Shown in pieces: positions 4,991-47,425 of a stretch of 64,000 nucleotides of DNA. The notes under the pieces were generated by a model that was not told where the DNA came from, searched no databases, and saw only the letters and a list, made by a program, of their open reading frames with translations. Source of the stretch: a virus. The DNA lies in the IMG/VR virus record IMGVR_UViG_3300008266_000037, positions 1 to 64,000 of that record, one strand, 5' to 3'. Made by a program: the position numbers and the translations under genes. Each line of letters begins with the position of its first letter. The first letter of the stretch is position 1.

Positions 4991-5287
4991 GTGAAAACGC
5001 CCCGTGATTTGATTGTCCCCTTCGAGGATGAGCCTAGCCAAGGGCTCATGGATATTGCGTGCAACGCGGGCACTATCAGGGTGTCGGCCAGAACGGGCGG
5101 TAAGGTTAGACTGCTGGTCGCGGATGACCATTGTGAGGCCGGTGGCCGATGGATTGATGGAAACGGCAAATGGTTGGGGGCGTCTCTGTCCAAAAATCAG
5201 GCCCTCGCCCTAATCCTCGCCCTGTCTGCTGCCACGCGTGAAGAGCCCATCATCAACAAGGCTGAAGAATGTCCCCTCGAAAGCTAA
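4991..5287 (+). CDS. small protein, member of multi-copy paralog family (C-terminal WxGxxLSKNQAxxLxxxL helix)
   Basis: 98 aa with GTG start after GGAGAG. Paralogous to the next gene. Confidence 0.5.
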   Translation: MKTPRDLIVPFEDEPSQGLMDIACNAGTIRVSARTGGKVRLLVADDHCEAGGRWIDGNGKWLGASLSKNQALALILALSAATREEPIINKAEECPLES

Positions 5288-5556
5288 TCGTTCCTTACGA
5301 AAGTCGTTCCGACTACCCGTCACTAGGCACGGTCGCTGGCAGAGACGGAATGGTCAGGGTCTATACCGCTAAATCGCTCCTCGGCGGAGGGCTTAAGCTG
5401 ACCATAACACGAAACCTCGACAACAAGGCAGCTCACGGGTGGAGCGGAGAGACCCCGGTCACCCTGAGCCGAGAGCAAGGACTGGCCTTTGTCCTCGCTA
5501 TTGTCAACGCGATTGCCCTCATGGACGAGAACGGAAATCAGAAAGAACCGGCATGA
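5269..5556 (+). CDS. small protein, paralog of 4991..5287
   Basis: 95 aa. Shares the LIVP(F/Y)E, G.VRV and C-terminal GW.G....LS(K/R)(N/E)Q(A/G)LA motifs. Confidence 0.5.
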   Translation: MSPRKLIVPYESRSDYPSLGTVAGRDGMVRVYTAKSLLGGGLKLTITRNLDNKAAHGWSGETPVTLSREQGLAFVLAIVNAIALMDENGNQKEPA

Positions 5557-6014
5557 ACCACTCCATCTACGACCTGATTGAAGAAAACATCGCCAGTCAT
5601 GGCCGCCATTTGATGGCTGTGTTTGGTGATGAGACAGCCATGGTACATCCCTTTGTGTACACAATCGGCAACCACACCAAGGGGCTTCCCGAACTGCTGA
5701 TGATCGGCAGCTGCGACAACGCAATCGGGCACATCCTCAACAACCTGTCCGAACAGATGATCAGTCAGGGCGGGGCGTTCAGCAACGGCGAGATCGTGCA
5801 TCCCTTTCCCGGCAACGAGAAGGTGTTCGGCTTGAAGATCATCAAGGCCAACCCCGAGGTGAAGGAAATCTACACCGTGCAGGCAGGGCAAGCCCTCCAA
5901 ACCGAGGACTACGCTGTCTTGCAGGTGGTGGCTCCCGGCACCAACGGTAAGTTTCCCGGCGAGGAAGGGGCTGACGATTCTTGGGGCGCTGTCCCCCTGT
6001 ATCCGGTTCAGTAA
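5553..6014 (+). CDS. DUF4262-like protein
   Basis: 153 aa from the ATGA-coupled internal ATG. Motif FVYTIGNHTKGLPELLMIG resembles the DUF4262 core (recalled from memory). Confidence 0.5.
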   Translation: MNHSIYDLIEENIASHGRHLMAVFGDETAMVHPFVYTIGNHTKGLPELLMIGSCDNAIGHILNNLSEQMISQGGAFSNGEIVHPFPGNEKVFGLKIIKANPEVKEIYTVQAGQALQTEDYAVLQVVAPGTNGKFPGEEGADDSWGAVPLYPVQ

Positions 6015-6026
6015 GGACCAAAACCA

Positions 6027-6473
6027 ATGACCACCCCTGACATAGCCGGTCTGTGCGAGAGGCTGCGGGCTGCGCGGGAAGGCGTCACGCCGGGCGTCGG
6101 GTATGCGCCTCATCCAGACGACAACCCTTCGGCCATTAAAGCCGATCAAGGGTGTCGCGCCGTCTATATCGCGGACATAATGCAACAGGAAGACCGAGCC
6201 TTCATCGCCCTGTCCCGCGAGGCCGTCCCCGCGCTTCTCGACACCATTGAACGCCAAACCGCTGAGATCAAACGACTGAACGCCACCTGCTATCTCGACA
6301 GCTTCATGGCGTCAGAGCGCAAGGTTGAACGCCAAGCCGCTGAGATAGAGAGGCTGCGGGGGGCTTTGAAACGGTCACGGCGCTATGTCGCAGACCTTCC
6401 CATCGTCGGGGACGCGGACCTAGCAGTAATCGACGCCGCCCTTACAGGAGAAGACGCTGGGGGGAAGGGATAA
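6027..6473 (+). CDS. hypothetical protein (possibly Ead/Ea22-like)
   Basis: 148 aa with a central coiled-coil. Confidence 0.5.
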   Translation: MTTPDIAGLCERLRAAREGVTPGVGYAPHPDDNPSAIKADQGCRAVYIADIMQQEDRAFIALSREAVPALLDTIERQTAEIKRLNATCYLDSFMASERKVERQAAEIERLRGALKRSRRYVADLPIVGDADLAVIDAALTGEDAGGKG

Positions 6474-6679
6474 TGGTTCACTCCGCGCAAGGGCGCTCCG
6501 TACCCACCGAGGAGCAACATCCGCCGGTTCTCGCGCGGATGGATATGATCGTGGCGCAACTCCAGGGACTGCCGCACGTCGTCGCCACCTGTCGGGAAGC
6601 GGCCAACCTCATTCGGGAAATGGACGCGCACCTTCACGCCATCCTTTCTCTCATTCAGTCAGAAGGAAAATCAAAATGA
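6473..6679 (+). CDS. hypothetical protein
   Basis: 68-aa ORF, translationally coupled. Confidence 0.4.
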   Translation: MVHSAQGRSVPTEEQHPPVLARMDMIVAQLQGLPHVVATCREAANLIREMDAHLHAILSLIQSEGKSK

Positions 6680-7257
6680 CCGACACCACCGACGACCGGG
6701 AGTATGGCCCGGACGAGAACTATGCCGACAAGATGCTGGAACGCAGAGAAGCCAGCATGAATGTGTGCAAGGCGCTCGCTGAGAACAGCCCGCTCGAAAA
6801 GTTCACGCCCGCCCAGATGCACGAGGTCAACAACAAGGGCCGCATCCTTCAGGACGGTCTGCGTGGCGCGCTGATGGTGTCAATGTCTAAGGGCGGCGAT
6901 CCGATCCTGTGTTTCTATGCGGCGCTGGAGGCGCTGATCACGGTGTTCAGCACCATGGAGCAGACGACCGAGAATCAGGAGGCCGTCGCCTACCTCATGG
7001 CTATCGCCAATGGGGTGCGGATTTCCCCTGAGGGCCCGCTCTCCATCCTCAACGGCGAACTGTATCTGGCCGCTGTCGTTGACACCAAGGTCGATGTTCC
7101 CAAGGATGTCCGCGCTCGCTTTGGCCTGCCCGAGGAGGGCGAGATCAAGCCGGGCGGGGTCATCAAGCCCTTCTTCCCCGGACAGAAGGACGGCGGCAAT
7201 GTGATCGACGCCTCCGAACTGTTCCGCTCGGCGGGCAAACCCACCACCGTTCACTGA
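6676..7257 (+). CDS. hypothetical protein
   Basis: 193-aa ORF. Confidence 0.55.
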   Translation: MTDTTDDREYGPDENYADKMLERREASMNVCKALAENSPLEKFTPAQMHEVNNKGRILQDGLRGALMVSMSKGGDPILCFYAALEALITVFSTMEQTTENQEAVAYLMAIANGVRISPEGPLSILNGELYLAAVVDTKVDVPKDVRARFGLPEEGEIKPGGVIKPFFPGQKDGGNVIDASELFRSAGKPTTVH

Positions 7258-7281
7258 TCACAACCCAACAGGGAGGCCAGC

Positions 7282-7614
7282 ATGGCCAAGAAGAAACTGA
7301 CTGCGCTCCAGTATTGGCGCAGGGAATACGCCGAGATGTCGTTCGCCAATCGGTGCGCCAAGAAGGCCGCTCGCATGAGTCCGTTCGCCAAACAGGTGAT
7401 CAACGGCCACGTCTGGGGCAGCTTCAAGCAACCAGCCGCTCAGCGCATGGCTGCAACCATGAAGCGGGTGTGTCGTGAGTGGATGGAGGCTCGACCCATC
7501 GCTGCCGAGAACACCGCCAAGCAATGGGCAGCCGACGCTGCCAAGCGGGCGGCTAAGCTGGGCCATCCCATCCCGAACACTACCGCCCCCGAGAACAAGG
7601 TGAAGGAAGACTGA
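7282..7614 (+). CDS. hypothetical basic helical protein
   Basis: 110-aa ORF with GGGAGG RBS. Confidence 0.5.
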   Translation: MAKKKLTALQYWRREYAEMSFANRCAKKAARMSPFAKQVINGHVWGSFKQPAAQRMAATMKRVCREWMEARPIAAENTAKQWAADAAKRAAKLGHPIPNTTAPENKVKED

Positions 7615-7615
7615 C

Positions 7616-7858
7616 ATGAACCAACAGCCAATGAGCAAGGCAATGAAGGTTTACCTTGGCATTGCTGGGTGGGTTCTCAGCATTATCGCCCTGACGCAGT
7701 CGGCGCTGATGATGCTGAGCATCAAGGGGTCTTGGGGAGACATCGCCGTTCTGGCTGGCGTCCTCCTCATCATCATGGCCGGAGCGCTCACGCTCTTCGG
7801 CATCAACAAGGGGGCTGAACTCCTCATGCCTCCGCAATCGAAGGACGACGAAGAATGA
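7616..7858 (+). CDS. small membrane protein (2 TM) coupled to SPFH gene
   Basis: Two hydrophobic helices and an acidic C-terminus. Its stop overlaps the start of the next gene. Confidence 0.55.
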   Translation: MNQQPMSKAMKVYLGIAGWVLSIIALTQSALMMLSIKGSWGDIAVLAGVLLIIMAGALTLFGINKGAELLMPPQSKDDEE

Positions 7859-8718
7859 AGAAGACTCTCCTGAGGCTCGGCCTCATTGCTGCCCTGTCTC
7901 TGTCAGCTATCGGCCTTGTCGGCTGTGGTCAGCCCGTCAAGCAGGGTGAAGTCGGCGTGAAGGTGGTCGAAGTCGGCGGCAACGCTGGTGTTCGCAACAC
8001 CGAACTGGGCACCGGTCGCTACTGGAACGCCATCGGCGAACGAATCATCGTGTTCCCCACCACCACGCAGACCTACAACTGGACCGGCGGCGCTTCCATC
8101 CGGTTCCTCAACAAGGACGGTGTTCAGACCACCGCCCCCGTGTCCGTGACGTTCCGCGTTTCGCCGTCCAAGGCCAGCGATCTGGTCCAGACCTACAAGC
8201 TGGGCATGGAAGACATCGTCAACGGTCCGCTGCAACGCTACCTCCAGAACGCCTTCGTCGTGCGGGGTGTGGGGTACACCAGCGAACAGCTCTACGGCGC
8301 TGGCGCTCAGCAACTCTCAGCAGACGTGACCGAGATGCTCCGGCGTGGTTCACGAGATGCCTCTGGCCGGGTGGTTCAGCCCGGTCTGGAATCTCAGGGC
8401 ATCATCATCGAGTCGGTCAACTGGGCCGGAAGCCCGGTGCTTCCTGACTCCATCGTGGCCCGCATCAACGAGGCGACGGCGGAACGGCAGCTGGCATCCC
8501 GTGCCCGTGAACGTCTGGCGACCGCTCAGGCCAACGAGGCCGTGACCATCACCAACTCCAGAGCAAGGGCCGGTGCTCTTGATCTGGAAGGTGCCGCCAT
8601 CCGCCGCAATCCCGAGGTGCTTCGCCTTCGTGAAGTCGAGCGCAGCAAGGGCCTGTGTCCGTTGTCGGCCACCACCTGTGTGCTGGGCGGCGACGTGGCG
8701 GCGATGATCGGCAACTAA
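7855..8718 (+). CDS. SPFH/band-7 (HflK/C-stomatin-like) lipoprotein
   Basis: Lipoprotein signal MKKTLLRLGLIAALSLSAIGLVGC. SPFH-like beta-rich core followed by a long Ala/Arg/Glu coiled-coil. Confidence 0.65.
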   Translation: MKKTLLRLGLIAALSLSAIGLVGCGQPVKQGEVGVKVVEVGGNAGVRNTELGTGRYWNAIGERIIVFPTTTQTYNWTGGASIRFLNKDGVQTTAPVSVTFRVSPSKASDLVQTYKLGMEDIVNGPLQRYLQNAFVVRGVGYTSEQLYGAGAQQLSADVTEMLRRGSRDASGRVVQPGLESQGIIIESVNWAGSPVLPDSIVARINEATAERQLASRARERLATAQANEAVTITNSRARAGALDLEGAAIRRNPEVLRLREVERSKGLCPLSATTCVLGGDVAAMIGN

Positions 8719-8723
8719 CCCGG

Positions 8724-8752
8724 TGAGGGGGAGGCTTCGGTCTCCCCCGTCA
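8724..8752 (+). terminator. GAGGGGGAG...CTCCCCC hairpin after SPFH gene
   Basis: G/C stem with a gcttcgg loop and no U-tract. Part of the recurrent motif family. Confidence 0.3.
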
Positions 8753-8809
8753 TCCCAATGGAAGACGCATCTGATGGGTGCGCCTTCTCTTTGGATGAAG
8801 GAAAACGAG

Positions 8810-9292
8810 ATGTCTAACATCAACGTCAATGACCCCAATGCCCTGACAATCCTGCATGACAAGCTGATCGCAGCGCACCGGGCTTTCTATACCGCTGACC
8901 CGAAAGAACAGCTCAGCCCGATGATCATCTTCTACACCCCGGACGGGACGGGCACCGCTGTGTCGTTTCATATGGACGGGGGCGAAGATAACAAGGCCTA
9001 CATAGCGCAGAAGATGAAGGCCATGTTCGCTGAGCAGAACGTGCAGATGTACGCCTTCTTCGCTGAAGCGTGGGCCGCTGCCTATGACAAGGGCAAGGTG
9101 GATGTGATGCCCTCCAAGCGAGAGGACAGGAAGGAGATCGTGTGCACGTTGGTGGTCCACCGAGACGGGCGCAAGATGTGCTCTGCCACTGAGATCAACA
9201 GGGACTGGGAGTCGGGCGGCGCTGTTCTTGGCAAGGTCGAGAACAGCGGAGACTCATTCGGCGGCAGGTTTGCGGAGTTGTTTGATGAGTAA
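8810..9292 (+). CDS. hypothetical protein
   Basis: 160 aa from the internal ATG, with AAGGAAAACGAG RBS. Confidence 0.5.
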   Translation: MSNINVNDPNALTILHDKLIAAHRAFYTADPKEQLSPMIIFYTPDGTGTAVSFHMDGGEDNKAYIAQKMKAMFAEQNVQMYAFFAEAWAAAYDKGKVDVMPSKREDRKEIVCTLVVHRDGRKMCSATEINRDWESGGAVLGKVENSGDSFGGRFAELFDE

Positions 9293-9557
9293 GTTTGAAG
9301 AAGCCAAGATGTCCGTCCATAGTTTTAACGGAAGCCCCGGACGGATTCTACTGTTTGTGTTGAGCAACGGAACAGGAATAAGGCTAGGGTGTTGGGACGC
9401 TGACTCCGCAGGCCTTGATGGAGAGCTTGCTTCTCGTGAAGACGGCATGGGATACACGGCCCTTAACCTTTCGTTTGATGACGCAAAGCAGCTGGCCATG
9501 CACCTTATGCGGATGGTCAGGGACGAAAAACTTTCTGGCGACCAAGATGATTCCTGA
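9285..9557 (+). CDS. small protein, member of multi-copy paralog family
   Basis: 90 aa. C-terminal YTALNLSFDDAKQLAMHLMRMV matches the family helix motif. Confidence 0.45.
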   Translation: MSKFEEAKMSVHSFNGSPGRILLFVLSNGTGIRLGCWDADSAGLDGELASREDGMGYTALNLSFDDAKQLAMHLMRMVRDEKLSGDQDDS

Positions 9558-9750
9558 GTGGTGGCAGACTGGAGCGCAGCACCAGCTACGCAGCCATGAT
9601 GGCAAGGTCACATGGGCCACCATAGAAAGGATCGCTCCCTACTACAGGGTCAGGCTTCTCCGTGGTCCCTGCTCTCAGCTTAAGAAGGCCGGTTCACTAA
9701 GAGTGGCAAAGCAGATTGCCACTGACTGGTTCACCCAGAGGACAACATGA
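9547..9750 (+). CDS. hypothetical small protein
   Basis: 67 aa from the internal ATG, overlapping the upstream stop. Confidence 0.35.
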   Translation: MIPEWWQTGAQHQLRSHDGKVTWATIERIAPYYRVRLLRGPCSQLKKAGSLRVAKQIATDWFTQRTT

Positions 9751-10439
9751 GCAACATCCCGTATTGGTATGACGGCGAACAAGGCCGACACAGAAACGAC
9801 ATCTACCCGTTTCAGGTCCCCAGCAAAAGGGAAGTGAGGGCAGAGAGCAAGAGGCGCCTTACCCTTAACGTCTTGAATGCAATGAGGGCGGTGCCGAAGG
9901 GTTGGTCTATCAAATGGAAGGCATCTCGCCGTCGCACCTTCCGGGTCAACCACACCACCAAAACCATCAGCGTTCCCATGCCCGCTCAATACGCTGGTCT
10001 TCCAGCCCTTGGTAGCGCCATTCATTTGGCCGTCCAGATTAGTAAGGCCATGAATAATGCCGAACAAACCGGCATGGTGCCAGCATTGATGGTCAAGGCG
10101 TGGCCGTTTCTGTTCGGCAAATACTTCAGCCTCCATTACAGGAACGTCATTCCATGTGGGGGGTATGTAGCCAACAGGCACGCCCTAAAGACGGCTGGTA
10201 TTCAGGCTGTGAGAGAAGTTCTCCGGTTTTACCAGTCGCCTGATGCGTGGCGCATTCCCCGGCGCAAGGCTGGCAGCCCCATTCAATGGCAGCGGCATAA
10301 TGTTAACACCAACACCCTGTCCGCTATCGCTCATCGCAAGGTCATGATGGACTACCTTAAGGTCAATGACCCTGCCTACCCCCTTCCAGCTATCGCCAAG
10401 GCGAGGCTGAAGAAGATCAACCAACCCCAACAGCCATAA
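9747..10439 (+). CDS. hypothetical protein upstream of MoxR-VWA pair
   Basis: 230-aa ORF with ATGA coupling. Confidence 0.55.
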   Translation: MSNIPYWYDGEQGRHRNDIYPFQVPSKREVRAESKRRLTLNVLNAMRAVPKGWSIKWKASRRRTFRVNHTTKTISVPMPAQYAGLPALGSAIHLAVQISKAMNNAEQTGMVPALMVKAWPFLFGKYFSLHYRNVIPCGGYVANRHALKTAGIQAVREVLRFYQSPDAWRIPRRKAGSPIQWQRHNVNTNTLSAIAHRKVMMDYLKVNDPAYPLPAIAKARLKKINQPQQP

Positions 10440-10450
10440 AGGAGACCAAC

Positions 10451-11506
10451 ATGGCTCAACAAAAGACTTCGGACATCCCCGTTGTTTCGCCGATGGTGGC
10501 CAAGCAATGCGTCCGCGAGATGCTCAATGCTGGCTCCGCTGCGGTGCCGCCGTTCCTCTGGGGACCGCCCGGTGTCGGCAAGTCCGCCATCGTGAAGGGA
10601 GTGGCTGAAGAAGAAGGTGTCGGCTTCATCGACCTGCGTCTGGTTCAGCTCGATCAGGTGGACCTGCGCGGCCTGCCCTATCTGCTCGACGACAAGGTCA
10701 ACGAGGGCCTGCGCGAGATGCACTTCGCTGCCCCCGGCGGCCTGCCGCGCGAGGGTCGGGGCATCCTGTTCCTCGACGAGTTCCCGCAAGCCACCTCGCT
10801 TGTCCAGAACGCTGCCTCTGAGCTGGTCCTCGACCGTCGCTGCGGCGAGTACCGTCTGCCCGACGGCTGGATCGTCGTTGCTGCCGGCAACCGTCGTCAA
10901 GACCGTGCAGCCACGCAGGAACTGCCCAGCCACCTGAAGAATCGCTTCACCCATCTGGAAATCGACGCCAAGTTCGCCGACTGGGAAGCGTGGGCTCAGC
11001 TGCCGAACGCCACCAAGTGCGGCCCCATCGAGCCCCGGCTGCTCGCCTTCCTCCAGAGCAACCAGTCCCGCCTCAACAACTTCAACCCCGACACCGTGGC
11101 GTCGCCGACCTCCCGCAGCTGGGAGTTCGTCAGCCGTATCCTGCACACCGTCAAGGACAAGCGCGCTCGCAACGCCTTGATCGGCGGCGCAGTCGGCAAG
11201 GGGATGCAGGCCGAGGTCATGGCCTTCCTCTCCGACTCCGAGGACATGCCGACGATGGCGCAGATCATCGCCGACCCGATGACGGCACCCATCCCGGAGA
11301 CCCTGTCCGGCTGCAACGCCGCGCTGGACAATCTGGCCCTGACCGGCCGCCCTGAAAATGCTGAGCCCATTGCTCAGTACATCAGCCGCCACGTCGCCGA
11401 CAGCCAGATGGTCGCTCTGGTCCAGATCATGGCCCGCAAGGACATCACCTCGTGGATGTCTTCGCCCACTCTGGACAAGCTGATGAAGGCCAACGGCCTC
11501 TCCTAA
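10451..11506 (+). CDS. MoxR-family AAA+ ATPase
   Basis: Walker A GPPGVGKS. Walker B ILFLDEF. Sensor-1-like VVAAGNRR. AAA_5/CbbQ-NorQ-like layout. Confidence 0.8.
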   Translation: MAQQKTSDIPVVSPMVAKQCVREMLNAGSAAVPPFLWGPPGVGKSAIVKGVAEEEGVGFIDLRLVQLDQVDLRGLPYLLDDKVNEGLREMHFAAPGGLPREGRGILFLDEFPQATSLVQNAASELVLDRRCGEYRLPDGWIVVAAGNRRQDRAATQELPSHLKNRFTHLEIDAKFADWEAWAQLPNATKCGPIEPRLLAFLQSNQSRLNNFNPDTVASPTSRSWEFVSRILHTVKDKRARNALIGGAVGKGMQAEVMAFLSDSEDMPTMAQIIADPMTAPIPETLSGCNAALDNLALTGRPENAEPIAQYISRHVADSQMVALVQIMARKDITSWMSSPTLDKLMKANGLS

Positions 11507-11528
11507 TCGGGCGGCACATCCAACCAGC

Positions 11529-11565
11529 GGGGGAGGGGAGCAATCCTCTCCCCCATTTCTTTTCG
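11529..11565 (+). terminator. GGGGGAG...CTCCCCC hairpin + U-rich tract between MoxR and VWA genes
   Basis: 7-bp G/C stem followed by ATTTCTTTTCG. Possible attenuator setting the ATPase:VWA ratio. Confidence 0.4.
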
Positions 11566-11573
11566 AGGGACCG

Positions 11574-12800
11574 ATGAGCAAACAAGAACAGCAGTACAAG
11601 GCCACGCAGTATGTGCGTGAAGCGATCGAGTCCATGATCGAGCGAGACCCCTTCTTCGGTCACATCACCGACCAGATGCGTCTGTGCCCCGACGCCAAGA
11701 AGGAGATCAAGACCATCGGCACCAACGGTCGTCTCCTCGTGTACGACAGCGAATGGGTGGTTCGTTATCGTGAGGTTTATGGCCCCGCCAAGTTCGCCAC
11801 CATCCTCGCTCACGAGGCGGCACACGTTGCGTTCGGCCACCCCTACCGCATGGGCGACAAGCGCCCCGAGATCTACGACAAGGCGTGTGACGCCGTCATC
11901 AACGGCAACCTTCGTCGCAAGGGCTATGACATGCCCAACGAAAGCTTCTTCTTTCCCGGCGCTGAGGACATGACGGTCGAGGAGTGCTACCGCAAGCTGG
12001 TGGAAACCAGCGGCGAGGGGCAGGACAAGAACAACCAGCGCACCCGACAGGCTCAGAGTAGCGGCAAGTGTTTCTCCCCTGATGTCGGCACGGATGCTGA
12101 AGAAGAAGCCAAGGCCAAGGGCGAAAGCGAAGGTCAGGGCCAAGGTCAGGGCGACGAGGACGAGGACGCCGAGGACAAGATCCGCGAGGGCGTTGCCCGT
12201 GCTGCTCAGCGTGCCCGCAAGGCTGGCAAGATGCCCGGCGAGTGGGAGCAGATGATCACCGACTCATTCCTCAGCAAGAAAAGCTGGAAGGATGAGCTGC
12301 GTCAGTTCCTCGGTGGCGGCGAGCAGAAGGAACCTTCTTGGTCCAAACCCAACCGTCGCTATGTCCATCAGGGCGAGTACCTCCCCGGTCCCTCGAAGTT
12401 CGGCCCCGGTCGTATCGTGCTGGCCGTTGACGTTTCCGGCTCTGTCTCCGGCTCTCTGGTCGAGAAGTTCTGCGCTGAGGTGCGCAAGATCAACATCGAC
12501 CTTCAGCCCGAAGCCATCGACGTTATGACCTGCGACACCCGTGTTGCATGGCAGGAGGAGTTCGGACCTTATGATGATGTCCAGATCCCTGCTAGGGCCA
12601 TCACCGGTGGCGGCACCAACTTCTCTCCTGTGTTCAGGAAGGTCAAGGAGATGGGCGTCCAGCCCAAGGCTCTGGTGTACTTCACCGATCTGCAATGCCA
12701 CGACTTCGGCGAGAGGCCTGACTACCCTGTTCTCTGGGTTGTCTGGCCCGGCGGCTGGAACAAGGCACCGTTCGGCAACATCGTTCACATGGATGACTAA
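11574..12800 (+). CDS. VWA-domain protein with N-terminal zincin-like metallopeptidase domain (DUF2201-type MoxR partner)
   Basis: HEAAHVAFGH HExxH motif. Acidic GQGQGDEDEDAED linker. MIDAS-like DVSGSVSGS in the C-terminal VWA domain. Confidence 0.8.
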   Translation: MSKQEQQYKATQYVREAIESMIERDPFFGHITDQMRLCPDAKKEIKTIGTNGRLLVYDSEWVVRYREVYGPAKFATILAHEAAHVAFGHPYRMGDKRPEIYDKACDAVINGNLRRKGYDMPNESFFFPGAEDMTVEECYRKLVETSGEGQDKNNQRTRQAQSSGKCFSPDVGTDAEEEAKAKGESEGQGQGQGDEDEDAEDKIREGVARAAQRARKAGKMPGEWEQMITDSFLSKKSWKDELRQFLGGGEQKEPSWSKPNRRYVHQGEYLPGPSKFGPGRIVLAVDVSGSVSGSLVEKFCAEVRKINIDLQPEAIDVMTCDTRVAWQEEFGPYDDVQIPARAITGGGTNFSPVFRKVKEMGVQPKALVYFTDLQCHDFGERPDYPVLWVVWPGGWNKAPFGNIVHMDD

Positions 12801-26724: not shown

Positions 26725-27150
26725 ATGGCGGATTTGCCTAGCAAACACGCCGTTCACTTCGAGGCGGTGAAGATCGCCATGAACCAGACCAAGGATGGGT
26801 GGAAGCTCATCCTTGCGGTTCACCCTAACGATGCACCCGAGGAAGTTCTTCGGGCGCTCGTTGGGGCGAGGTACATGATCGCCGCCGTTGAGTTGGATGA
26901 GCATGAGCAGCCGAAGCCCCTGTTGAGCGATGCCGAGAAGGATGTTCGGTATGCTGGTCAGCTGTGCCGCACACCCGCCTTTGCCACTTGGATGTGGAGC
27001 AGGGGCTGGGCTCAGGAGATGACAGAGGCGTCTGCTGCCGATGGCCTTAGGCTAGTGCTGGGGATCGCTTCTCGATCAGAGATCGCCACCAATGAAGATG
27101 TAAGAAGGAGATTCCGTGAGCTTGCCCAATCCTACTTGGACGATAGCTGA
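26725..27150 (+). CDS. hypothetical protein overlapping integrase start
   Basis: 141 aa. 35-nt overlap with int, in the position an xis-like gene would occupy. No clear HTH. Confidence 0.45.
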   Translation: MADLPSKHAVHFEAVKIAMNQTKDGWKLILAVHPNDAPEEVLRALVGARYMIAAVELDEHEQPKPLLSDAEKDVRYAGQLCRTPAFATWMWSRGWAQEMTEASAADGLRLVLGIASRSEIATNEDVRRRFRELAQSYLDDS

Positions 27151-27952
27151 CCTGATCAGCTCATACCGGGGCAGTCGGCACAACCGGCTTCTTGCTCCGG
27201 CCACCCGAAGAAATACCGAGAAGACCTACCGATGGCTGGAACCGTTCAAGGACCGGCTTCTGGACACCATCACCAAGGCTGAGATAAGCACGGTTATCGA
27301 CGGCCTGCCTGCTGGCAACGCTCACATCTTTCTGTCCCGCGTTCGCGCTTTGTTCAGCTACGCTCGCTCGCTGGAAGAGATGACCAAGGACCCCTGTGTA
27401 GGCCTCACCACGCCTGCTACTGGTGAGTACCGACCTTGGACCCAGAAGGAAGTAGACGCCTTCCTGAAGGGCTCCAGCGACACTGTGGGCATGGCTGTGA
27501 AGCTGGCCTATTACACCGGCCAGCGGATGAGTGATGTCCTGACCATGAAGTGGAACGACATCCGGGACGGCGGTCTGGATGTTGTGCAGATGAAGACGAA
27601 GCAGCCGCTTCACATTCCCCTGCACCCTAAGCTGAAGGCCGCCCTGAAGAAGCACTCTCAGGGCAGCAAGTCCGATTACATCATTGCCATGAAAGACGGC
27701 AGGCCCTACACCCCGCATGAGTTTCGTGGTCGTTTTCGGGACACCCGCATCGCTCTTGGTTTGCCCGACGATATGGTGTTCCATGGGCTTCGCAAACTGA
27801 CGGCGGTCAACCTCGCCGAGAAGGGCGCCTCTACGCAGGAGATCATGGCTGTTGGTGGGTGGAAGTCCTCTCGCCAAGTGGACCACTACTGCAAGGGGTC
27901 TAATCAACGTAAGCTGGCCAAGCAGGCCATTGGAAGACTGGGAGCCCTGTGA
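27116..27952 (+). CDS. int: tyrosine integrase/recombinase
   Basis: R in YYTGQRMSDV. HxxR in FHGLRK. Catalytic Y in VDHYCK. GTG start after AAGGAG. Confidence 0.8.
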   Translation: MSLPNPTWTIADLISSYRGSRHNRLLAPATRRNTEKTYRWLEPFKDRLLDTITKAEISTVIDGLPAGNAHIFLSRVRALFSYARSLEEMTKDPCVGLTTPATGEYRPWTQKEVDAFLKGSSDTVGMAVKLAYYTGQRMSDVLTMKWNDIRDGGLDVVQMKTKQPLHIPLHPKLKAALKKHSQGSKSDYIIAMKDGRPYTPHEFRGRFRDTRIALGLPDDMVFHGLRKLTAVNLAEKGASTQEIMAVGGWKSSRQVDHYCKGSNQRKLAKQAIGRLGAL

Positions 27953-28140
27953 CTGATACCAGATACAACAAGGAGCTGGCAGAACGCCTGTGCGCCGCCG
28001 TGTTGGCGTTTGAGGGTGTGCTGCCCTTCATCAAATCAACTCTTGGTGAACACCATCCAAGGGTATTGACGGCCACCGAAGCTATGGCTACGCTCCGTCA
28101 AGAACTTGAGGCGCAGGGCTACTTCCCTCGCCTCCAATAA
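27949..28140 (+). CDS. hypothetical protein
   Basis: 63-aa ORF coupled to int. Confidence 0.4.
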   Translation: MTDTRYNKELAERLCAAVLAFEGVLPFIKSTLGEHHPRVLTATEAMATLRQELEAQGYFPRLQ

Positions 28141-28526
28141 ATGCGGCCCGTGTGACCTTTAAGGGCGGCCCAGACGGACGGGGCCCTACATCAAGACCCA
28201 CCTGCGCTCGCGTATGTATGAGCGTCAACACCAGTACACGGTTCCCGCTACATTGACGGGCTGGTGAAGGGGGTAAGTCCAGACTATTTAACTTCCTGCC
28301 CGCGAGAGAAAGGAAGGGGTAGGTGAAAGCCTATTCCGTCGAGGCACCACGATTGCGTGTTGCAGCCAAGACAACCCACTTGTCGGGTATATCAACCAGA
28401 CCCAGCCTCTTTGGGATGCACCCTGTGGCGGTCGAACCTATATGTCCAAACAGCAAAGCACAGTCGCGGCGCTCTATGGAATATCAGAAGTAGGCCCATA
28501 CCAGGCGCATCTTTCCGCCAGCACCA

Positions 28527-28549
28527 GATCTGAGAAATCTGGTGTGCGT
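28527..28549. repeat. inverted repeat caccagat-ctgagaa-atctggtg
   Basis: 8-bp perfect arms in the 485-bp int-distal non-coding region. Confidence 0.35.
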
Positions 28550-28626
28550 GTGAACCCCTATCAGTAGGATCAGTGACCTGAAAGCTGGAGAACGTGGACA
28601 AGGGGCAGGAACCTTAGGAGAGAGAA

Positions 28627-28824
28627 ATGATCTTCCGCGCCCGCGTGGTGCTTCAGCACCAAGACTACCCCGACAACAGATACATCACGACTGAGGATGA
28701 GATTGTGGAGGCAGACAGCGAAGATGAGGCGGAAGCCAAGATCATCAAGGCCCTCACTGTTGACGACCCTTATGGCCACGACGTTTACGTGGCGAGCGTG
28801 ACGCTGAAGAAGATGATTGTTTAA
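28627..28824 (+). CDS. hypothetical acidic small protein
   Basis: 65-aa ORF with GGAGAGAGAAATG RBS. Confidence 0.45.
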   Translation: MIFRARVVLQHQDYPDNRYITTEDEIVEADSEDEAEAKIIKALTVDDPYGHDVYVASVTLKKMIV

Positions 28825-29135
28825 TGCCTGTGATTGACGACGATCTCGCCAAGATCATCCGCCCTATCGTGGAAGGGCAGATCAGGTCTTTCATTCATTC
28901 ACACCCCAACATCGTAAAGGGGGTTGACTGGCGCTTCAGTCAGGATACACGAGAAGAAGCATTGGTCGCGTCCATCGCCAAGCGCGTGAACCGTGACCTT
29001 TTGTCGGAGCAAACAAGGCTCCGGCTGGCGGCTGTTCTGGGAACCAACGCACCCAGCAGCCAAACTGGGGTGGATCCTGAACTTGCCCCAGAGACTGTTG
29101 ATCTGCAACCCGGCGGTGGGTCTTCAGCTGAGTAG
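28824..29135 (+). CDS. hypothetical protein
   Basis: 103-aa ORF. Confidence 0.45.
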   Translation: MPVIDDDLAKIIRPIVEGQIRSFIHSHPNIVKGVDWRFSQDTREEALVASIAKRVNRDLLSEQTRLRLAAVLGTNAPSSQTGVDPELAPETVDLQPGGGSSAE

Positions 29136-29200
29136 GAATGTCTGGATGAAGACTGGACAGACCATGGACCGGGGTGGAACGCTTACTGCCCCGGTCTTCT

Positions 29201-29277
29201 GCGCCCTTAGCTCAACTGGATAGAGCACCAGCCTTCTAAGCTGGGGGTTTCAGGTTCAAACCCTGAAGGGCGCGCCA
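29201..29277 (+). tRNA. tRNA-Arg (anticodon TCT), CCA encoded
   Basis: Manual cloverleaf. Acceptor GCGCCCT/AGGGCGC. D-arm GCTC-AACTGGATA-GAGC. Anticodon arm CCAGC-CTTCTAA-GCTGG. T-arm TCAGG-TTCAAAC-CCTGA. Discriminator G + CCA. Confidence 0.85.
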
Positions 29278-29279
29278 AT

Positions 29280-29355
29280 GTGCCGGGTGGTCCAACTGGT
29301 AGGGGCGCCCCGTACGCGGAGGAGGTGGGGGTTCAAGTCCCTCTCCGGCACACCA
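29280..29355 (+). other. tRNA-like element (canonical acceptor, D-loop, T-arm and CCA; anticodon arm does not fold canonically)
   Basis: Acceptor GTGCCGG pairs with CCGGCAC, then A + CCA. D-loop AACTGGTA. T-loop GGTTCAAGTCC. Possible pseudo-tRNA or attP core, 2 nt after the tRNA-Arg. Confidence 0.45.
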
Positions 29356-29368
29356 ATCCACGGAAGCT

Positions 29369-29584
29369 ATGCGAAAGAACTCTGCCCTCCCTAGGCTGAT
29401 TGCCCGCCTCCAAGAAGGCCCTCTAAAGGGAACCGACTGGAGACAATGCTCTCACAGTCAGCACACCCTGTATGAGAACATCCGCAGGCTTCGGTCTATG
29501 GGGTGGGACATACGGACGATAGGGGATTCCGGTAGGCCCGGAGAGTATATCCTTATAGCCCCGCCTGACGTTCCAGTTCCCTGA
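29369..29584 (+). CDS. hypothetical small protein (possible DNA-binding)
   Basis: 71-aa ORF ending convergently against the giant gene. Confidence 0.35.
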   Translation: MRKNSALPRLIARLQEGPLKGTDWRQCSHSQHTLYENIRRLRSMGWDIRTIGDSGRPGEYILIAPPDVPVP

Positions 29585-32500
29585 TTTGCTGGATGGTGAG
29601 GTTCATGAGAACCTGCTCTTCGTCACGCAGCTGCTTAACGATGGCCACCTTAGAGGCGTCGTCCATCTGAGGGTCCGTTTGGACCTCTCTAATCTCTCGC
29701 CTCGTCTTGATGCGTTCGCGCTCCATGTCAGCCGCGAAGTCGTAGATCATCATCCGCTCGGGACTGCGGGCCAGCAGACTGTTCACCGCCTCGTAGTTGC
29801 CTTCACTCTCGAACTGATCGACAGACCTACCGAACTGAAGGTAGGGCGTGATCAGCTTGTCGTAAGAGGTGCGGATAGATGCGCCACTGACATTGCCGCC
29901 AAACGACCTGTAGAGCGGCCAGTCTCTTGCGGCCAGCTCTCTTCCCTCAACGGCCTTGCTTTGCGGATCAATGGCAAAACCCATCAGGTTCCCGACCCTT
30001 CCAACAAACCGGCCCATGCCGCCAAGGTATGCCCCGGCCATGTGGTCAATGTCGTCGGGGTGAACCTCAATAGCGCCGGGGGTGTAGGCACTATCCCCGC
30101 CAGTGAGGCGAGAAGCCACGTCAGCAATGCCTTGGCTGGTCTGAGATGTTGACGGGAAGAACGACTGAGAGGCTGGCTGCTCAAGGCCCGGCATACCGGT
30201 CGGGTGAATGGGCTTGCCAGTGAAGTCAGTATTTACAGCTGTTTCGACCATAGGTCTGAACACAGACGGGAAGATGGCAGACACCCAACTTCCGTTGGTG
30301 CCGAAGGGGTTGAACGCCGACAGGACGGAGGAGCCCGTTTTCATAGCAGCATCCAACGGACCGCTCTTGCCCATCGCTACGCGCGCCATGTTCCGGCCAG
30401 CGGTATGGAAGACATTGTACCCAAGCGGCATGGGGATCTTCAGATAGTTCCCGCCTCCCAGCATGATGACCATGTTCTTCTCAAGGATGTAATCCTCGAT
30501 CTTATCGTACTCGCTGGTGCCGTATTCATCCTCTGGCGAGAGAGCCGACATAAGCACCTCTTGCAGAACGCCAGCGACCATGATTCCCATGATCACCTTT
30601 TGTACGCGAGGACTGGTCGCCGCCTGCATGAGAGTGGCGGTGCCTTGGGTGGCAGCGTTGAAGAACATATAGGCCGCGTTCATGTACGGCCCCCACTCCC
30701 CCTTGCGGTTGAAGTTGACAGTCATGTCCTTAGCCGCCTGAGCCGCGCGCTCCTCGCTCCAGCCCTGCTCCCTGAAAGCCTCAAACACGGCTAGACGGGT
30801 AGCCCCCTCAACGGAATCGTTGAGGTCTTCCAGATACTTAAAGCCCTTGCCTATTGCCTTCATGGATAGCCGGAGAGCCTTGGCCCCGGCGTTCTTGTCC
30901 TGCGGGTCAATGTCGTTCAGCTCTCTGGTGATCTGCTGCATCTGGTCCTCAATGGAGGTGAGACCATACACACCAGTCAGGCCACCAAGCTCAGACAGCC
31001 TGTCCATTTTTGCCTCAAGGACCGGGTCTTTCTTGCCCAGCCTCTCGCCTACCGCTTGACCGGCATAGACCATAGCCTTCTTGCTGATCTTCTGCCACGC
31101 ATCCGGGCTGTACTGACCAGACTGGATCATGGCCGCCTGCACGTCACGCAGGAAGTTGGCGACAAGGAACTCAGGGTTATATGATGTCTGCAACTGAGAC
31201 ATCAGGCGGGTCAGCCTCGCCATGCGGGACAAGATCAGGTCAGGGAGTGAACCCCCAAAGGACTGAATCTTCGACAGGCTGTCGCCCAGCCTCTTGTTCT
31301 TGACCTCAAAGATAACGTCCTTGCCGTTTTCTTTTGTGACGAAGTAGTTGGGGTCTCCCTTTACGTCCTTCGGACTCATCCGGGTCTTACCGTTCACGAC
31401 CACGCGCTGCATGGGGTGAGCGGGAAGTTCAACCAGATAGTCTTTGGTGAGTTCAGGGTTGTCACGGACGAACCGCGCGAGAGACTGACCGACCCTGACC
31501 TTCTCGCTTCTAACGATAGCCTCTTGGTTCTGCATGATCACGTTGGCCAGCATGTCGCCAGCGTAGGTTTGGCGACCCTTCATCGCCCGGTCTTCTTTTC
31601 CTCCGACCTTGTATGCCTTGCCGGTTCTGGCGTGCTCATCTCCAGTGAACCAGTCCTCTGCCGTGTTGCCGACAGCAAACCCTCTCAGTGGCACATAGTG
31701 TTTGAAGCGGGGCACAAGGGGAGACACGATGTCATCCCACTTAGGCGACAGGCCGGAGGTCTCTCTGGTCTTCCTTGTGTAATCCAGAATAGCATCGACC
31801 TTACTGGCAGCTGCCTCGACCTTGCTTTGCTTAGAGTAGCCGTCGAACCAGTCCATGATGGCTGCGGCTTCCTCGTTGGTCATGCCAGAGCCTGCGTCCA
31901 GCATCTCGTCGGTGATCTCTCCTGTGTCAGGGTCAATCTCCTTGGCCTTCCGCACTTCCTCAATGAACTTATTTCTCTCGGGCGCATGGCGGGCGTAGAG
32001 GTACAGGTTTAGAACGGCCTCCGACGGGTGGACGTGGGAGCTTTCCAGCTCTAGTCTGGCGGCGTTTGAAACACTGGACAGCTTTGCAAGGTCAGCCTCG
32101 GTCGCGCCAATCTGGTGGATAGCAAGGTAAGCCGGGCGCCACAGGTTCTCGTGTGCCTTGTCCATCTTATGCTGAGAGCGGCGGGTATAGAGGGTGTCGG
32201 CCAGAACGGGGTCGTTGGTGTCAGTCACCCGACCGCCAAACTTCGCCACCTCGGAAACCATCCTACGAACCGGGAACATCCGGTCTTGCGCCAGCGTCGT
32301 GGCCCTGTCGATAGCATCCCTAGCGTCAGCCTCAGCAACCTTGATCGGGCTGACCCTTGTTCCTTTGGCAAGATAGTCCTGCACAATGGTGTAGCGCGCT
32401 GCCATTTCCGCAGCACCAGACCCACCCATAGCCGCTACCTCAGGGCTTGGGCCTCCGATGGTCTTGCCTGTGGTGGACATTGCCGCATCGAGGGCGTCAA

Positions 32501-35500
32501 GGTCAGCCTCAGTCATCCCGCGAGGAAGGGTCGCTCCCTTGGAGTACAGGCGGAAGCCCTCTCCGTTAACGACCTCCCGCATCTTGGGAGTGATGTGGAA
32601 GGTAGGGGCGTCAAGGGTTCTGGCAGGCATTACCCCGCCTGTAATCGGGTGGTCGCCTTCTGGAATGTCAAACTGTCGATTGTTAATCTGCGCCCCGTAA
32701 GGCTTGATCTCCTTGCCGATTATGGATGTAATCACATCGTCGTAGAACTTGCCGACACCCTTTACAGACTGGTCATTACTGTACCGTTCCACTTGAATGT
32801 GTCCCGGCGTCCAGCTGATCTGGGTAATGCCGTTGTCAATAGCATCCAGAATGATGCGTCTGGTGGCCAGCTTAACCCATGCGTTATTCTTGAAGGGAGC
32901 TTCCGGAGGGGTGTCATACACTTCAAGAAGCTGAATCTTGTCGTATTCCTCTTGGGCTTTACGAAGAGAGAAGCGAATCGCCTCAGCAGCCTCGTGCGTC
33001 TGTCTATCTGGCCAGTACTTATAGTTTGAGGCGCGCGTGAATCTGGACAAGACATTGTGTTCGCCGGTCCGACTAAAGTCTGGGGGCTCGGCCATGTTAT
33101 TTTCGTAGAACTCAATGGCCTTTTCCTTTTCAGCCTGCAAGATCCTTTTAGCCTCAGCGACTTTTACCTCAACAATGTGCGAGCGGCGCAGGCGCTGGTG
33201 CCAGTCAGACTGGATTTCTTCAATGAACAGGGTTGGAACGCCGTTAACGTCATCCCTGATCTTGTAGCGAACGTGAGCCAGCACGTTGTACTCTCTGAAG
33301 TGCTCAGTGGCCCTGAAAGCCACTGGACTCAGCTTCGGGTTTATTGAACCCGGAATAGTGATCAGTAGTTCTGTCTCGGTGTGTCCTCCACGAAGTGTGT
33401 AGTTGCTGTGGTTGGCAACCAACCCGTCGTCTACCGTGTAATCGTTATACGTGTCCCACTCAGCAGCCGATGTCATCTTTTTGGCGACGTAACCTTCAGC
33501 CTGCTCTCGGTCCATTTGGCGACCGTCCATGTCCAGCTCATCCATAAGCTCTTGAACCATGGCGTCGAACATCTCCTTGTCGACAGGGTCTTCGATAGAC
33601 CCCGGACCCCTCTTGATGTCCTCCAAAACAATGTTGTTTTCCTCAAAGAACTCCTTCAACTCCTCAAGGGTCATGACCTTGTCAGGGTTTTCCTTAAGCA
33701 GGTCAGTAAACCCAACCCAATCCATCTCGTCCTTGGTCACGCCCGGCTGTGACTCAAGGGTCTTCAGCCATTGCTGAGCGGTGGCCTTCTTGGTGGTCTG
33801 GGCGTTGATGACCTGACCAAGGCGGGAATGAATACGGGCTCCAGCGTAAGAGAAGCGTCGGTCAGAAATGCGGGGGATGTTGTCCGGACGAATGCCAAAC
33901 GGGTCCACAAAAGACGCCATCTCCAGCATCTCATCGGCCATGTCATTGAGACCAGCCGCCCTGTTCTTCTCGGCCAGAGCCTGAAGGTTTTCGATGGTCT
34001 CCAACGGGGTAAAGCCGTTGCGGGAGTTGTAGTGAGACACGCCAGAAGCGGCAGCCTTCTTGGCAGCGATCTGAGCAAGAAGAGCGTTCTTCTCGTCCAA
34101 AGTCATCGAGATACCAAGGTTCTCGTTCACATCTACCGTGCGCCAAGGGGCATTACGTAGGCGCTCGGCTGGCGTCATGTTAATGCGCGACTCTGTGTTA
34201 CGCGCCTCCATCTCTCCATAGAGAGATTTGTAGACCGCAAAGTTTGTCGCCCGCTTGTATATGTCCGACATGTTGGAGGGGGGAACACCCATGACACTCA
34301 AGGCGCCCATAAGGTGCTCAACACTCTTGATCTGCGATGGGGTGTAGGTGGACCGTTCAGAGCCTACAGCCTTAAAGAAGCCGTCAATGTCCTGATTTTT
34401 TGATAGGGTTACCAGCTCCTTATTGACGGACTCAAACCGACGCCTGACCGCCTCACTCACCGTGGCAAGAGAAGGCATCCTGTTGGGGTTTCCGCCCCCG
34501 GCCATTCCCTCAAATGTCTGGATAGCGTGCTGGATTTCATGCAGCAGGACGGCTCTTATGGTTTCAGCCTCTTGAATGAGAGGCACGCCCCCCTTCCCGA
34601 CGGCAATCAAAATCCTATCAGGCGGCTCTCCGGTGCGAACTGGCGTCATGGCCGCGTTGCCCACAGTGAAGGAGCTGCCATCGTTTGTCTCGTCGGCAAA
34701 CTCAACCGTAACGTTTCTTAGGAAGGGGTAGGCCTCAAACAGCTCAGGATGATCCAGCACCTCTTCAATGGTGGAGTATATGGACGGACTCAGAACGCCT
34801 TGTTTCTGGCGGATGACAGCAAGGTCGCCGCGCAGATCAGAAGCGTTTGCAACAGGCTTAAGTCTGGAGTCATTGTCGCTGATCTCATAGCGAGGTTTCC
34901 CGTCAGGACCACGGAACCAACCGGTGTGCAGATAGATGGTGCCGCGAGAGTCGCCAGCCTTCTCCATCTTGAGGAACTTGGCGTAGTTGTCCCGTGGTGG
35001 GCGCTGGGATTTGGTGCTGGCAAAACTGAAGCGGCGGTCGGAAGGAACGGGAGGTTCCGCAAAGGGAAGCATGACCTCTTCACGGGCGGCAATCTTAAGG
35101 TTAGAGCCGGGAACGTTGTAAGGCTCCCTTCTTCTCACATTCCTGCTATCGAGAGTTCTTCTCCCTTCAGTGCTAAGCGCCTCCGCTTCGGCTTGCTGAG
35201 CATCAGCGGGCCAACCCTCCATCTGTCTGACGGCAAGCTGCGTCTGCCTGAGAATGGCCGAAACAACCATCTCTTCTTCCGGTCGGCTGTCGGCTCTTTT
35301 GGAAACGCCAATAACAATCCTGTCTGGGAGGGTTTGTCCGTCCCCGGAAACCATAAGAGAGCCGTCAGGCTTTTTAAGCGTGAACTCTACGGGAAGTGGA
35401 GCTAGTCCCGGATAGGCCTCAAACAACTCCTTGTGCTTGAGGACATCTTCAAGAACTTCATAAGTAGAGGTGGCGTTGGGACCGGCCTTGGCAATCCTTT

Positions 35501-46409: not shown

Positions 46410-46702
46410 TCCAACTCAATGCAGGTCATCTTCGCTTTGATGGCATCAACCATGAAGTTGATGTCAGCGAGTCGACTCAGGGAGCTGCAAAGGACCATCC
46501 CACCCTCGTAGCTTTCCCCAATCAAAACAACGTTACGCAGCTTGCCGATCTGGTTCTCAAGAACCTCATCGGGCGGACAGAGTTGGGACTCATCCCTCGT
46601 GTCAACTCTAGTGATCTCAACCCAGCTATCTCCCGGTTGCTCACCAAAGAGGTGGACCACCTTGTCTTCAGGTTCTTCGCTCAAAACAATCTCCTGTACC
46701 AA
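46406..46702 (-). CDS. hypothetical protein
   Basis: 98-aa ORF. Confidence 0.4.
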   Translation of the reverse strand: MVQEIVLSEEPEDKVVHLFGEQPGDSWVEITRVDTRDESQLCPPDEVLENQIGKLRNVVLIGESYEGGMVLCSSLSRLADINFMVDAIKAKMTCIELE

Positions 46703-47031
46703 GGGAGGTCTAGCGCCCTTGCCCGCCTGTTATGATCTTCAATCAGATTGACCAAGACCCGATTCTTTCCTTCGCAGTCCAGCCTCGCCATGCTCTCTCT
46801 AAGAGAGTGGACCTGAGCATCAGTAAGAAGCTCAAGGATGTCTGCCATCTCGTCCTTAGGGGGGAGCTTAGTTCCCGGGCAGCCCTTCAGCTCTTCCGCT
46901 ACCGGGATCTCCCACGTCGTCAGGCGCACACTCTGGGCACAACCCGACAATCCCGCGACGCCAAGCATCATCACTCCTATGAGCACGAACAAGAGCCCCG
47001 TCGCTCCCAGAATCGTCCGGAGCAGCTGCAT
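46681..47031 (-). CDS. putative o-spanin (lipoprotein), overlapping i-spanin frame
   Basis: From the internal Met: MQLLRTILGATGLLFVLIGVMMLGVAGLSGC lipobox signal. Periplasmic domain carries further Cys. The ORF extends to 47088. Confidence 0.4.
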   Translation of the reverse strand: MQLLRTILGATGLLFVLIGVMMLGVAGLSGCAQSVRLTTWEIPVAEELKGCPGTKLPPKDEMADILELLTDAQVHSLRESMARLDCEGKNRVLVNLIEDHNRRARALDLPWYRRLF

Positions 47032-47281
47032 CGAGGACTTCAGAAACTGCTCTATCCACGCGCGTGCGTCGGCTAGAAACTTCTTCATGGTACTCTCCTA
47101 GGTCTTCCACCAACCCCTCCGAGAGCCCCTTCTCTTGGGTTGTTTCCGTGTGCTCTACACGTTCGTTGTTGAACCGGACCTCGAACCATTTCGCTCTCCA
47201 TCCAATACCACCAACAATCAGGATGAGCACAAGGAGCGCCCCCAGTCCGATCAGAAGGCGGTACTCCTTCAATGTTGACAC
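46868..47281 (-). CDS. putative i-spanin (N-terminal TM)
   Basis: GTG start. TM helix LLIGLGALLVLILIVGGIGW followed by a charged helical region. 3' part overlaps the o-spanin ORF in another frame. Confidence 0.35.
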   Translation of the reverse strand: MSTLKEYRLLIGLGALLVLILIVGGIGWRAKWFEVRFNNERVEHTETTQEKGLSEGLVEDLGEYHEEVSSRRTRVDRAVSEVLDAAAPDDSGSDGALVRAHRSDDAWRRGIVGLCPECAPDDVGDPGSGRAEGLPGN

Positions 47282-47425
47282 GCTCCATAAGGGGCGGCCT
47301 CCGCTGGCTGAGCCGTGTGAGAAAGGAAGGCGTAGATGATCTGCACGCGGCCCATGAAGTCCGACATTTCCTCACCCTCAGGAGAGGTCGCTGTAGCGGA
47401 CTGAACAGCCTCCATACGCAGAACA

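Follow-up and report, generated by a model that had tools for sequence, protein, structure and literature searches.

A phage SPFH/band-7 lipoprotein resembling cage subunits is recurrently paired with a small two-transmembrane protein

Cellular SPFH cages come with membrane partners: in Escherichia coli the HflK/HflC cage is associated with FtsH, and the SPFH-NfeD operons (QmcA-YbbJ, FloT-YuaF/NfeD2, PH1511-PH1510) join an SPFH gene to a gene for a small membrane protein. An SPFH/band-7 lipoprotein is annotated in hundreds of phage genomes as well, and papers on these phages repeat a speculative analogy with HflKC and lambda CII; work on Bruynoghevirus and Burkholderia phages has already suggested an HflKC-FtsH-CII link, while noting that lytic phages are carriers too (PMC8540360, PMC10269572). 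Here we describe such a gene in a 64,000-nt stretch of viral DNA (positions 1 to 64,000 of IMG/VR record IMGVR_UViG_3300008266_000037, hereafter the window), where the gene for a 287-aa SPFH lipoprotein overlaps that of an 80-aa protein with two transmembrane (TM) segments (Table 1). The 287-aa protein is of a known and widely annotated kind, and the pair is an ordinary, divergent member of its family. The addition beyond existing annotation is the conserved small membrane gene, which makes the pair a two-component module: with an SPFH protein modeled as a full cage-type subunit, not orthologous to HflK/C, and a near-constant small partner, a vague annotation becomes a defined two-component system.

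A sequence-only reading of this DNA had called two plus-strand open reading frames (ORFs) here, both of which are real, and had assigned to the longer an LVGC lipobox, an SPFH-like core, and a long coiled-coil, all of which stand. PROSITE rule PS51257 describes signal peptidase II substrates by a basic n-region, an uncharged h-region, a lipobox of the form [LVI]-[ASTVI]-[GAS]-C, and a Cys at residues 15-35. Read by eye against this rule, the N-terminus of the 287-aa protein (MKKTLLRLGLIAALSLSAIGLVGC) looks like such a substrate, with K/R among residues 1-7, then a hydrophobic stretch lacking charges, and L-V-G-C with its Cys at position 24. This Cys is invariant in alignment A1 (14 relatives), and a lipobox-type Cys is present in at least 117 of 136 family sequences. 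The N-terminal anchor is here a lipobox rather than a TM helix or hairpin, and since the earliest of the conserved strands (GEVGV) begins only ~6 residues after Cys24, the SPFH1 domain must sit on the membrane surface.

The remainder of the protein has the layout of a cage subunit. Residues 28-226 score 69.5 bits (cut-off 23.6; E 5e-19) on Pfam PF01145 (Band_7), covering positions 3-174 of the 176 in the profile, and residues 1-272 match the phrog_200 profile, labeled "lipoprotein" (E 2.7e-51). An AlphaFold2 monomer model built on 127 homologs has a mean predicted local distance difference test (pLDDT) score of 88.3. In it, an N-terminal helix covers the signal peptide and the SPFH1/SPFH2 core is rich in beta strands; a helix of 54 residues (198-251) follows, with a second helix behind it (253-263) and then a lower-confidence tail. 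These last two helices, previously read as a long coiled-coil, would correspond to the coiled-coil wall of SPFH cages. When the model was compared with the PDB by Foldseek, the best matches were full-length cage subunits of HflK/C, stomatin, erlin, and prohibitin (E ~1e-12, probability 1.00), followed at lower rank by flotillin, QmcA-YbbJ (8z5g), and vault proteins, with flotillin and vault chains also at probability 1.00. A sequence search of the PDB returned only prohibitin, at E 0.085. Near the C-terminus lies a GLCP-x5-C motif that occurs in 26 family sequences and is kept in the closest relatives, with C268, P269, and C275 invariant in alignment A2; Cys268 and Cys275 are a candidate disulfide, and their conservation is consistent with an oxidizing periplasm. 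Between SPFH-core elements, at residues ~163-175, the protein also carries a 13-residue insertion (RRGSRDASGRVVQ) that it shares only with its 82%-identical relative P0001 and that is absent from all other aligned homologs.

With HflK/C structures (7vhq, 7wi3, and 9cz2) among the top fold matches, the lipoprotein could be an HflK/C mimic, which would join or replace the host HflK/C cage around FtsH in the periplasm and alter proteolysis, stabilizing phage regulators (in temperate phages a CII-like activator) or other FtsH substrates. The overall fold is alike, the protein would lie on the same side of the inner membrane as HflK/C, the window phage has an integrase, and this is the idea raised for the Pseudomonas (Bruynoghevirus) and Burkholderia phages cited above. 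However, stomatin, erlin, and prohibitin score as well as HflK/C in the fold search, and an NCBIfam scan of the 287-aa protein at E <= 0.01 gave no HflK or HflC model, only a signal-peptide-type match (LptM). Only one SPFH gene is present, and its product is held by a lipid anchor where HflK/C have a TM helix: Band_7 is not among the families matched by the 67 other window ORFs scanned, and the neighboring genes carry no SPFH domain. Nor was any CII-type family found among those 67 ORFs, and the family is abundant in obligately lytic phages, as PMC8540360 itself notes; this frequency in strictly lytic phages makes a role in the lysogeny decision unlikely as a general function. We conclude that the 287-aa protein is not an HflK/HflC ortholog, that mimicry of the host cage is an unlikely explanation, and that a role specific to the lysis-lysogeny decision is less likely than one general to infection. 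The tie to HflKC, FtsH, and CII drawn in the sequence-only reading thus receives no specific support.

The second component is the 80-aa protein, whose gene overlaps the SPFH start as had been claimed: its TGA (7856-7858) and the ATG of the 287-aa ORF (7855-7857) share an ATGA, an arrangement that supports translational coupling, and Shine-Dalgarno-like motifs can be read 6 nt 5' of 7616 (AAGGAAG) and 9 nt 5' of 7855 (GAAGGA). Its hydrophobic segments lie at residues ~9-27 and ~36-54, and its C-terminal tail is acidic. The predicted topology is N-in/C-in, with SIKGSWGD as a short turn in the periplasm. The protein has nothing significant in Pfam, PHROGs, or PADLOC, including no phrog_1130 match at E <= 0.01, and phmmer against 1.84 billion representative proteins found one relative only; neither it nor 10 counterparts from other loci have a Pfam NfeD match, even at E <= 1.

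Such a gene is nevertheless a near-constant companion of the SPFH lipoprotein. Under a uniform automatic call, applied to loci some of which are near-duplicates, a small ORF with at least two TM segments lies just upstream of 30 of 38 SPFH-lipoprotein genes compared with 4 of 313 other ORFs of the same loci, well beyond what chance would give; judged by eye, pairing holds in ~33 of the 38. Every close metagenomic relative examined has a small hydrophobic ORF directly upstream, often overlapping the SPFH start, and the same is true of Alcaligenes phage QDWS595, Vibrio phage CKB-S1, Pseudomonas phage U2, coliphage N4 (gp19), phiCbK (gp181), and Burkholderia phage PR1. In Klebsiella phage KNP2 the partner (gp103) is one gene removed from the SPFH gene, and in Clew-1 the adjacent ORF has one TM segment only, with the nearest match to our partner profile (below) two genes upstream. 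Of 18 further loci, genomic (alphaproteobacterial genomes included) or viral, 17 also have a partner, as does the Caulobacter flavus chromosome. Several partners belong to phrog_1130, annotated "membrane protein", and in six Vequintavirinae-type phages the partner and SPFH genes share a strand with 300-500 bp between them.

A profile built from 24 positional counterparts, with the window ORF and its 82% relative excluded, was searched against 530 six-frame ORFs of the window, and the 80-aa ORF was its sole significant match (E 6.4e-6; next best 0.21). As read from the profile alignment, partners have basic N-termini and a turn motif at the end of TM1, approximately L-[VIM]-[SN]-x-[KR]-D-x-[IV]-A; the topology implies that this conserved turn would face the periplasm, the same side as the SPFH protein.

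Two loci carry partner-like ORFs that have escaped annotation. In phiP27 (NC_003356.1; positions 872-1060 of our locus L019), a 62-aa two-TM ORF overlaps the start of lipoprotein L05 and matches phrog_1130 (E 2.5e-23). In Salmonella phage PhiSH19 (JN126049.1; minus strand, 1332-1550 of locus L044), an ORF of 72 aa that has two hydrophobic helices along with a strongly basic loop lies directly upstream of the SPFH lipoprotein gene of this Vi01-like phage; it has no match to the partner profile and may be an independent or highly diverged partner. The "superinfection exclusion protein" beside the same PhiSH19 gene was considered as a partner and ruled out, being soluble, acidic, and unrelated.

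Upstream of the pair, two genes of 193 and 110 aa are packed just as tightly, the nearer stopping at 7614, one base ahead of the 80-aa ORF, and the preceding gene ending 24 nt earlier. Neither matches a family in Pfam, PHROGs, PADLOC, or NCBIfam, and in the 82%-identical relative (locus L002) the gene order is the same across both. All four genes appear to lie in one operon, of which, given this tight spacing, the pair would be the last two cistrons. Right after the stop codon of the SPFH gene come two stable hairpins, the second with a U-rich tail (-43.6 kcal/mol, z -4.63; 0 of 200 shuffles equally stable), which probably end the transcription unit, and a sigma-70 promoter scan of 5000-11000 gave no site. 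The pair sits within a block of small plus-strand genes apart from the structural and lysis genes. The sequence-only reading had placed it in the early region of a temperate phage; the location is consistent with an early or middle region, and a temperate lifestyle is plausible because an integrase is present.

Relatives of the SPFH lipoprotein were found by tblastn in 346 phage records, lytic and temperate, all at <60% identity, while megablast of 6000-10500 against phages gave no nucleotide match; a pattern scan of viral contigs found nothing with the single 287-aa protein and only 2 loci with alignment A2. Strictly lytic carriers include N4 (gp20) and other Schitoviridae, Felix O1-like Erwinia and Salmonella phages, phiCbK, Vequintavirinae, and Bruynoghevirus, and temperate or plasmid-like carriers include phiP27, Stx2a phages, Pseudomonas transposable phages, SSU5, and RCS47. 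In these records the protein is named "lipoprotein", "band 7 protein", "prohibitin family protein", or "HflK family protein". Some SPFH lipoprotein genes are also recorded as "serine protease", "transposase", "transposase fusion protein", or "mobile element protein", names that look like propagated misannotations.

Homologs also occur in ordinary chromosomal neighborhoods of Caulobacter, Asticcacaulis, and other bacteria, which raises the possibility that the pair is a host-derived passenger ("moron") from an alphaproteobacterial chromosome, serving the lysogen, for example in tolerance of envelope stress, with no role in the lytic cycle. Close relatives in Caulobacter, Asticcacaulis, and other Caulobacterales sit beside ABC transporter, TamAB, flagellar, and Kup/two-component genes, and the category given to the partner family in PHROGs is "moron, auxiliary metabolic gene and host takeover". 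Yet the pair is translationally coupled within a packed operon and has no promoter-like site of its own, unlike a free-standing promoter-gene-terminator unit, and it is kept across unrelated strictly lytic phage families that have no lysogen to benefit. We regard a passenger origin of this kind as improbable.

The small size of the 80-aa protein, its two TM helices, N-in/C-in topology, and charged C-terminal tail resemble class II holins, so it might instead be a class II-type holin or antiholin whose triggering the SPFH lipoprotein regulates, setting the time of lysis. Sub-threshold matches to Pfam Phage_holin_3_6 for N4 gp19 (E 0.038) and for the partner in L002 (E 0.32) point the same way, as does a cell-wall hydrolase gene 1.4 kb downstream in a further relative (L004). 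These holin-family scores are, however, far below the cut-offs, the 80-aa protein itself belongs to no holin family in PHROGs or Pfam, and chromosomal copies of the pair exist outside prophages. The window already has an endolysin, a two-TM holin candidate, and spanin-like genes in a cassette on the other strand (46681-48405), ~39 kb from the SPFH pair, and with this separate cassette the pair is not lysis machinery. The holin reading of the 80-aa ORF was rejected once the cassette had been located, and we consider it very improbable.

The reading we favor, in which we place about as much confidence as doubt, is that the two genes form an envelope module, an SPFH ring or cage with an integral membrane partner, that confers a general benefit on infection. 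An infection-general role is favored because unrelated lytic and temperate phages keep the pair, and keep it among nonstructural genes. The phage would express the pair at the very end of an operon made up of small nonstructural genes. After export of the 287-aa product, lipidation at Cys24 and processing by signal peptidase II would leave SPFH1 on the membrane surface and facing the periplasm. From the full-length architecture we infer that the long helices most probably mediate self-assembly of the lipoprotein into a ring or dome fencing off a patch of membrane. This structure would lie on the periplasmic side of the inner membrane, in a geometry like that of HflK/C, with the lipid anchor replacing the TM helix. 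The cotranslated 80-aa protein would be its integral inner membrane partner, in or at the enclosed patch, where it may contact the SPFH1 domain through the short conserved periplasmic turn and play the role of NfeD proteins or FtsH in cellular SPFH cages (structures 8z5g and 7wi3). Such a module would remodel the envelope early in infection, creating within the host inner membrane a microdomain made by the phage, and its most probable benefit would be to block DNA entry by superinfecting phages, to keep the membrane intact and energized until programmed lysis, or both. Superinfection exclusion by the pair, also suggested in the sequence-only reading, is possible.

Several observations weigh against this envelope module. 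The residue after Cys24 is Gly, with no E. coli-type Asp retention signal, and across the family this position is mostly Gly or Ser, though phiP27 and PR1 have Asp there. Under E. coli sorting, Gly or Ser would direct the lipoprotein to the outer membrane, and direct contact between an outer membrane lipoprotein and an inner membrane partner is unlikely. In comparisons of window-type partners with the phrog_1130-type set, hhalign gave a probability of only 28%, so that the case for homology of the partners is built on the custom profile and on gene position, and scores of such a hidden Markov model can be raised by TM composition; we consider it probable, though not proven, that the window protein is homologous to the other partners. 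In phiEa21-4 and two chromosomal loci no adjacent partner is present. A literature search for functional work on phage SPFH proteins or N4 gp19/gp20 found none, and a 2026 paper states that the reason for the presence of an SPFH protein in phages "remains unclear" (PMC13239085).

As a more tentative and somewhat doubtful proposal, the pair may be a hitherto unrecognized, NfeD-independent "minimal" SPFH system, with which phages from N4 to phiCbK would build a periplasmic cage on the inner membrane for superinfection exclusion or membrane protection. If true, this would make the pair a widespread phage device for envelope takeover. N4 gp19-gp20 or the phiP27 pair offer tractable models in which to study it.

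The rest of the window is that of a tailed phage (Table 1). The portal gene shares the minus strand with genes for virion proteins and a giant protein of 3268 aa, and its product has ~40% identity to the portals of HTVC023P-type pelagiphages, Planktothrix phage Pag-Yong1, and Caulobacter phages. Erf, an exonuclease, HNH endonucleases, a MoxR-like ATPase, and the tyrosine integrase are encoded on the plus strand. An alphaproteobacterial host is likely because the nearest genomic SPFH relatives (42-43% identity) come from metagenome-assembled genomes of Caulobacterales. Pfam matches among 67 window ORFs include a GcrA cell-cycle regulator (E 6.4e-16), which fits such a host, and a GroES/Cpn10 co-chaperonin (E 1.4e-09); regular-expression searches, whether aimed at an M15 peptidase motif or at the GcrA and GroES ORFs, gave no match. 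On the 3' side of the integrase, ~1 kb with few ORFs leads to two adjacent tRNA-Arg genes (tct, acg) at 29201-29355, and the interval 27116-29355, at the junction of plus- and minus-strand gene blocks, is a possible attP region. Only the C-terminal third of the giant ORF (29553-39359, minus strand) matches known families (phrog_14770, phrog_616, phrog_10691, and the DarB-like antirestriction phrog_10089), with ~2300 N-terminal residues having no family match. At 10451-12800 on the plus strand, a MoxR-like AAA ATPase (phrog_1297) is followed by a 408-aa phrog_1314 protein labeled "HNH endonuclease", a conserved phage pair. PADLOC gave no defense-system match for either protein of the SPFH pair or for their neighbors.

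Table 1. Positions of the SPFH lipoprotein pair, its subfeatures, and other phage genes in the window.
Feature	Position	Strand	Basis
Two tightly packed genes (193 aa and 110 aa) 5' of the pair	6676..7614	+	ORF spacing
Small integral membrane protein, 80 aa	7616..7858	+	ORF and translation, two hydrophobic segments
SPFH/band-7 lipoprotein precursor, 287 aa, PHROG 200 member	7855..8718	+	Pfam, PHROG, AlphaFold2, Foldseek
Lipoprotein signal peptide, lipobox L-V-G-C, Cys24	7855..7926	+	Sequence reading, invariant Cys
SPFH1/SPFH2 core, residues 28-226	7936..8532	+	Pfam envelope, model secondary structure
Long helix (residues 198-251) and second helix (253-263)	8446..8643	+	AlphaFold2 model, alignment to full-length cage subunits
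C-terminal GLCP-x5-C motif, Cys268 and Cys275	8656..8679	+	Alignment blocks
Two stable hairpins after the stop codon, second with U-rich tail	8722..8794	+	RNA fold, terminator-like site 8766-8782
Tyrosine integrase, 278 aa	27116-27952	+	phrog_1, E 5.8e-42
o-spanin candidate, LSGC lipobox, overlapping the i-spanin candidate	46681-47088	-	Lipobox
i-spanin candidate, 137 aa, N-terminal TM	46868-47281	-	N-terminal TM segment
Holin candidate, 129 aa, two-TM	47426-47815	-	Two TM segments
Endolysin	47779-48405	-	phrog_181
Portal	61530-63953	-	Phage-type gene

Set against described systems, the pair is nearest in kind to the phage proteins of PHROG 200 (N4 gp20, phiP27 L05, phiEa21-4 gp81, and phiCbK gp180), which share its architecture of lipoprotein signal, SPFH core, and long helix at ~25-32% identity over ~77-84% of the length and are likewise usually preceded by a small membrane-protein gene, although the N4-type proteins lack both the RRGSRDASGRVVQ insertion and the C-terminal CP-x5-C motif. 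Their phrog_1130 partners (N4 gp19 and KNP2 gp103) resemble the window partner in position, size, two-TM layout, and turn motif and are joined to it by the joint profile, the window partner differing by an insertion of 3-4 residues in its turn.

E. coli HflK/HflC-FtsH shares with the phage protein a periplasm-facing SPFH1/SPFH2 domain, a coiled-coil wall, and an N-terminal anchor (fold E ~1e-10 to 1e-12), and its membrane client or partner under the cage parallels the arrangement suggested for the phage pair; it differs in having a TM helix rather than a lipid anchor, a K/C gene pair rather than one gene, and a protease, FtsH, as partner rather than an 80-aa two-helix protein. The superinfection-exclusion proteins T4 Imm/Sp, T5 Llp, and Cor are early components of the envelope, small inner membrane and/or periplasmic proteins or lipoproteins. 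Their likeness to the pair is a functional analogy only, as neither pair protein matches Imm_superinfect or another exclusion-related Pfam family, or any PADLOC system. In SPFH-NfeD operons the gene arrangement is that found here, an SPFH gene with a small membrane-protein gene. The phage partner lacks the OB-fold domain of NfeD (PF01957), which 80 aa are too short to hold, and whereas QmcA-YbbJ faces the cytoplasm, the phage pair is predicted to face the periplasm. Of the systems compared here, these operons are the likeliest functional analog of the phage pair.

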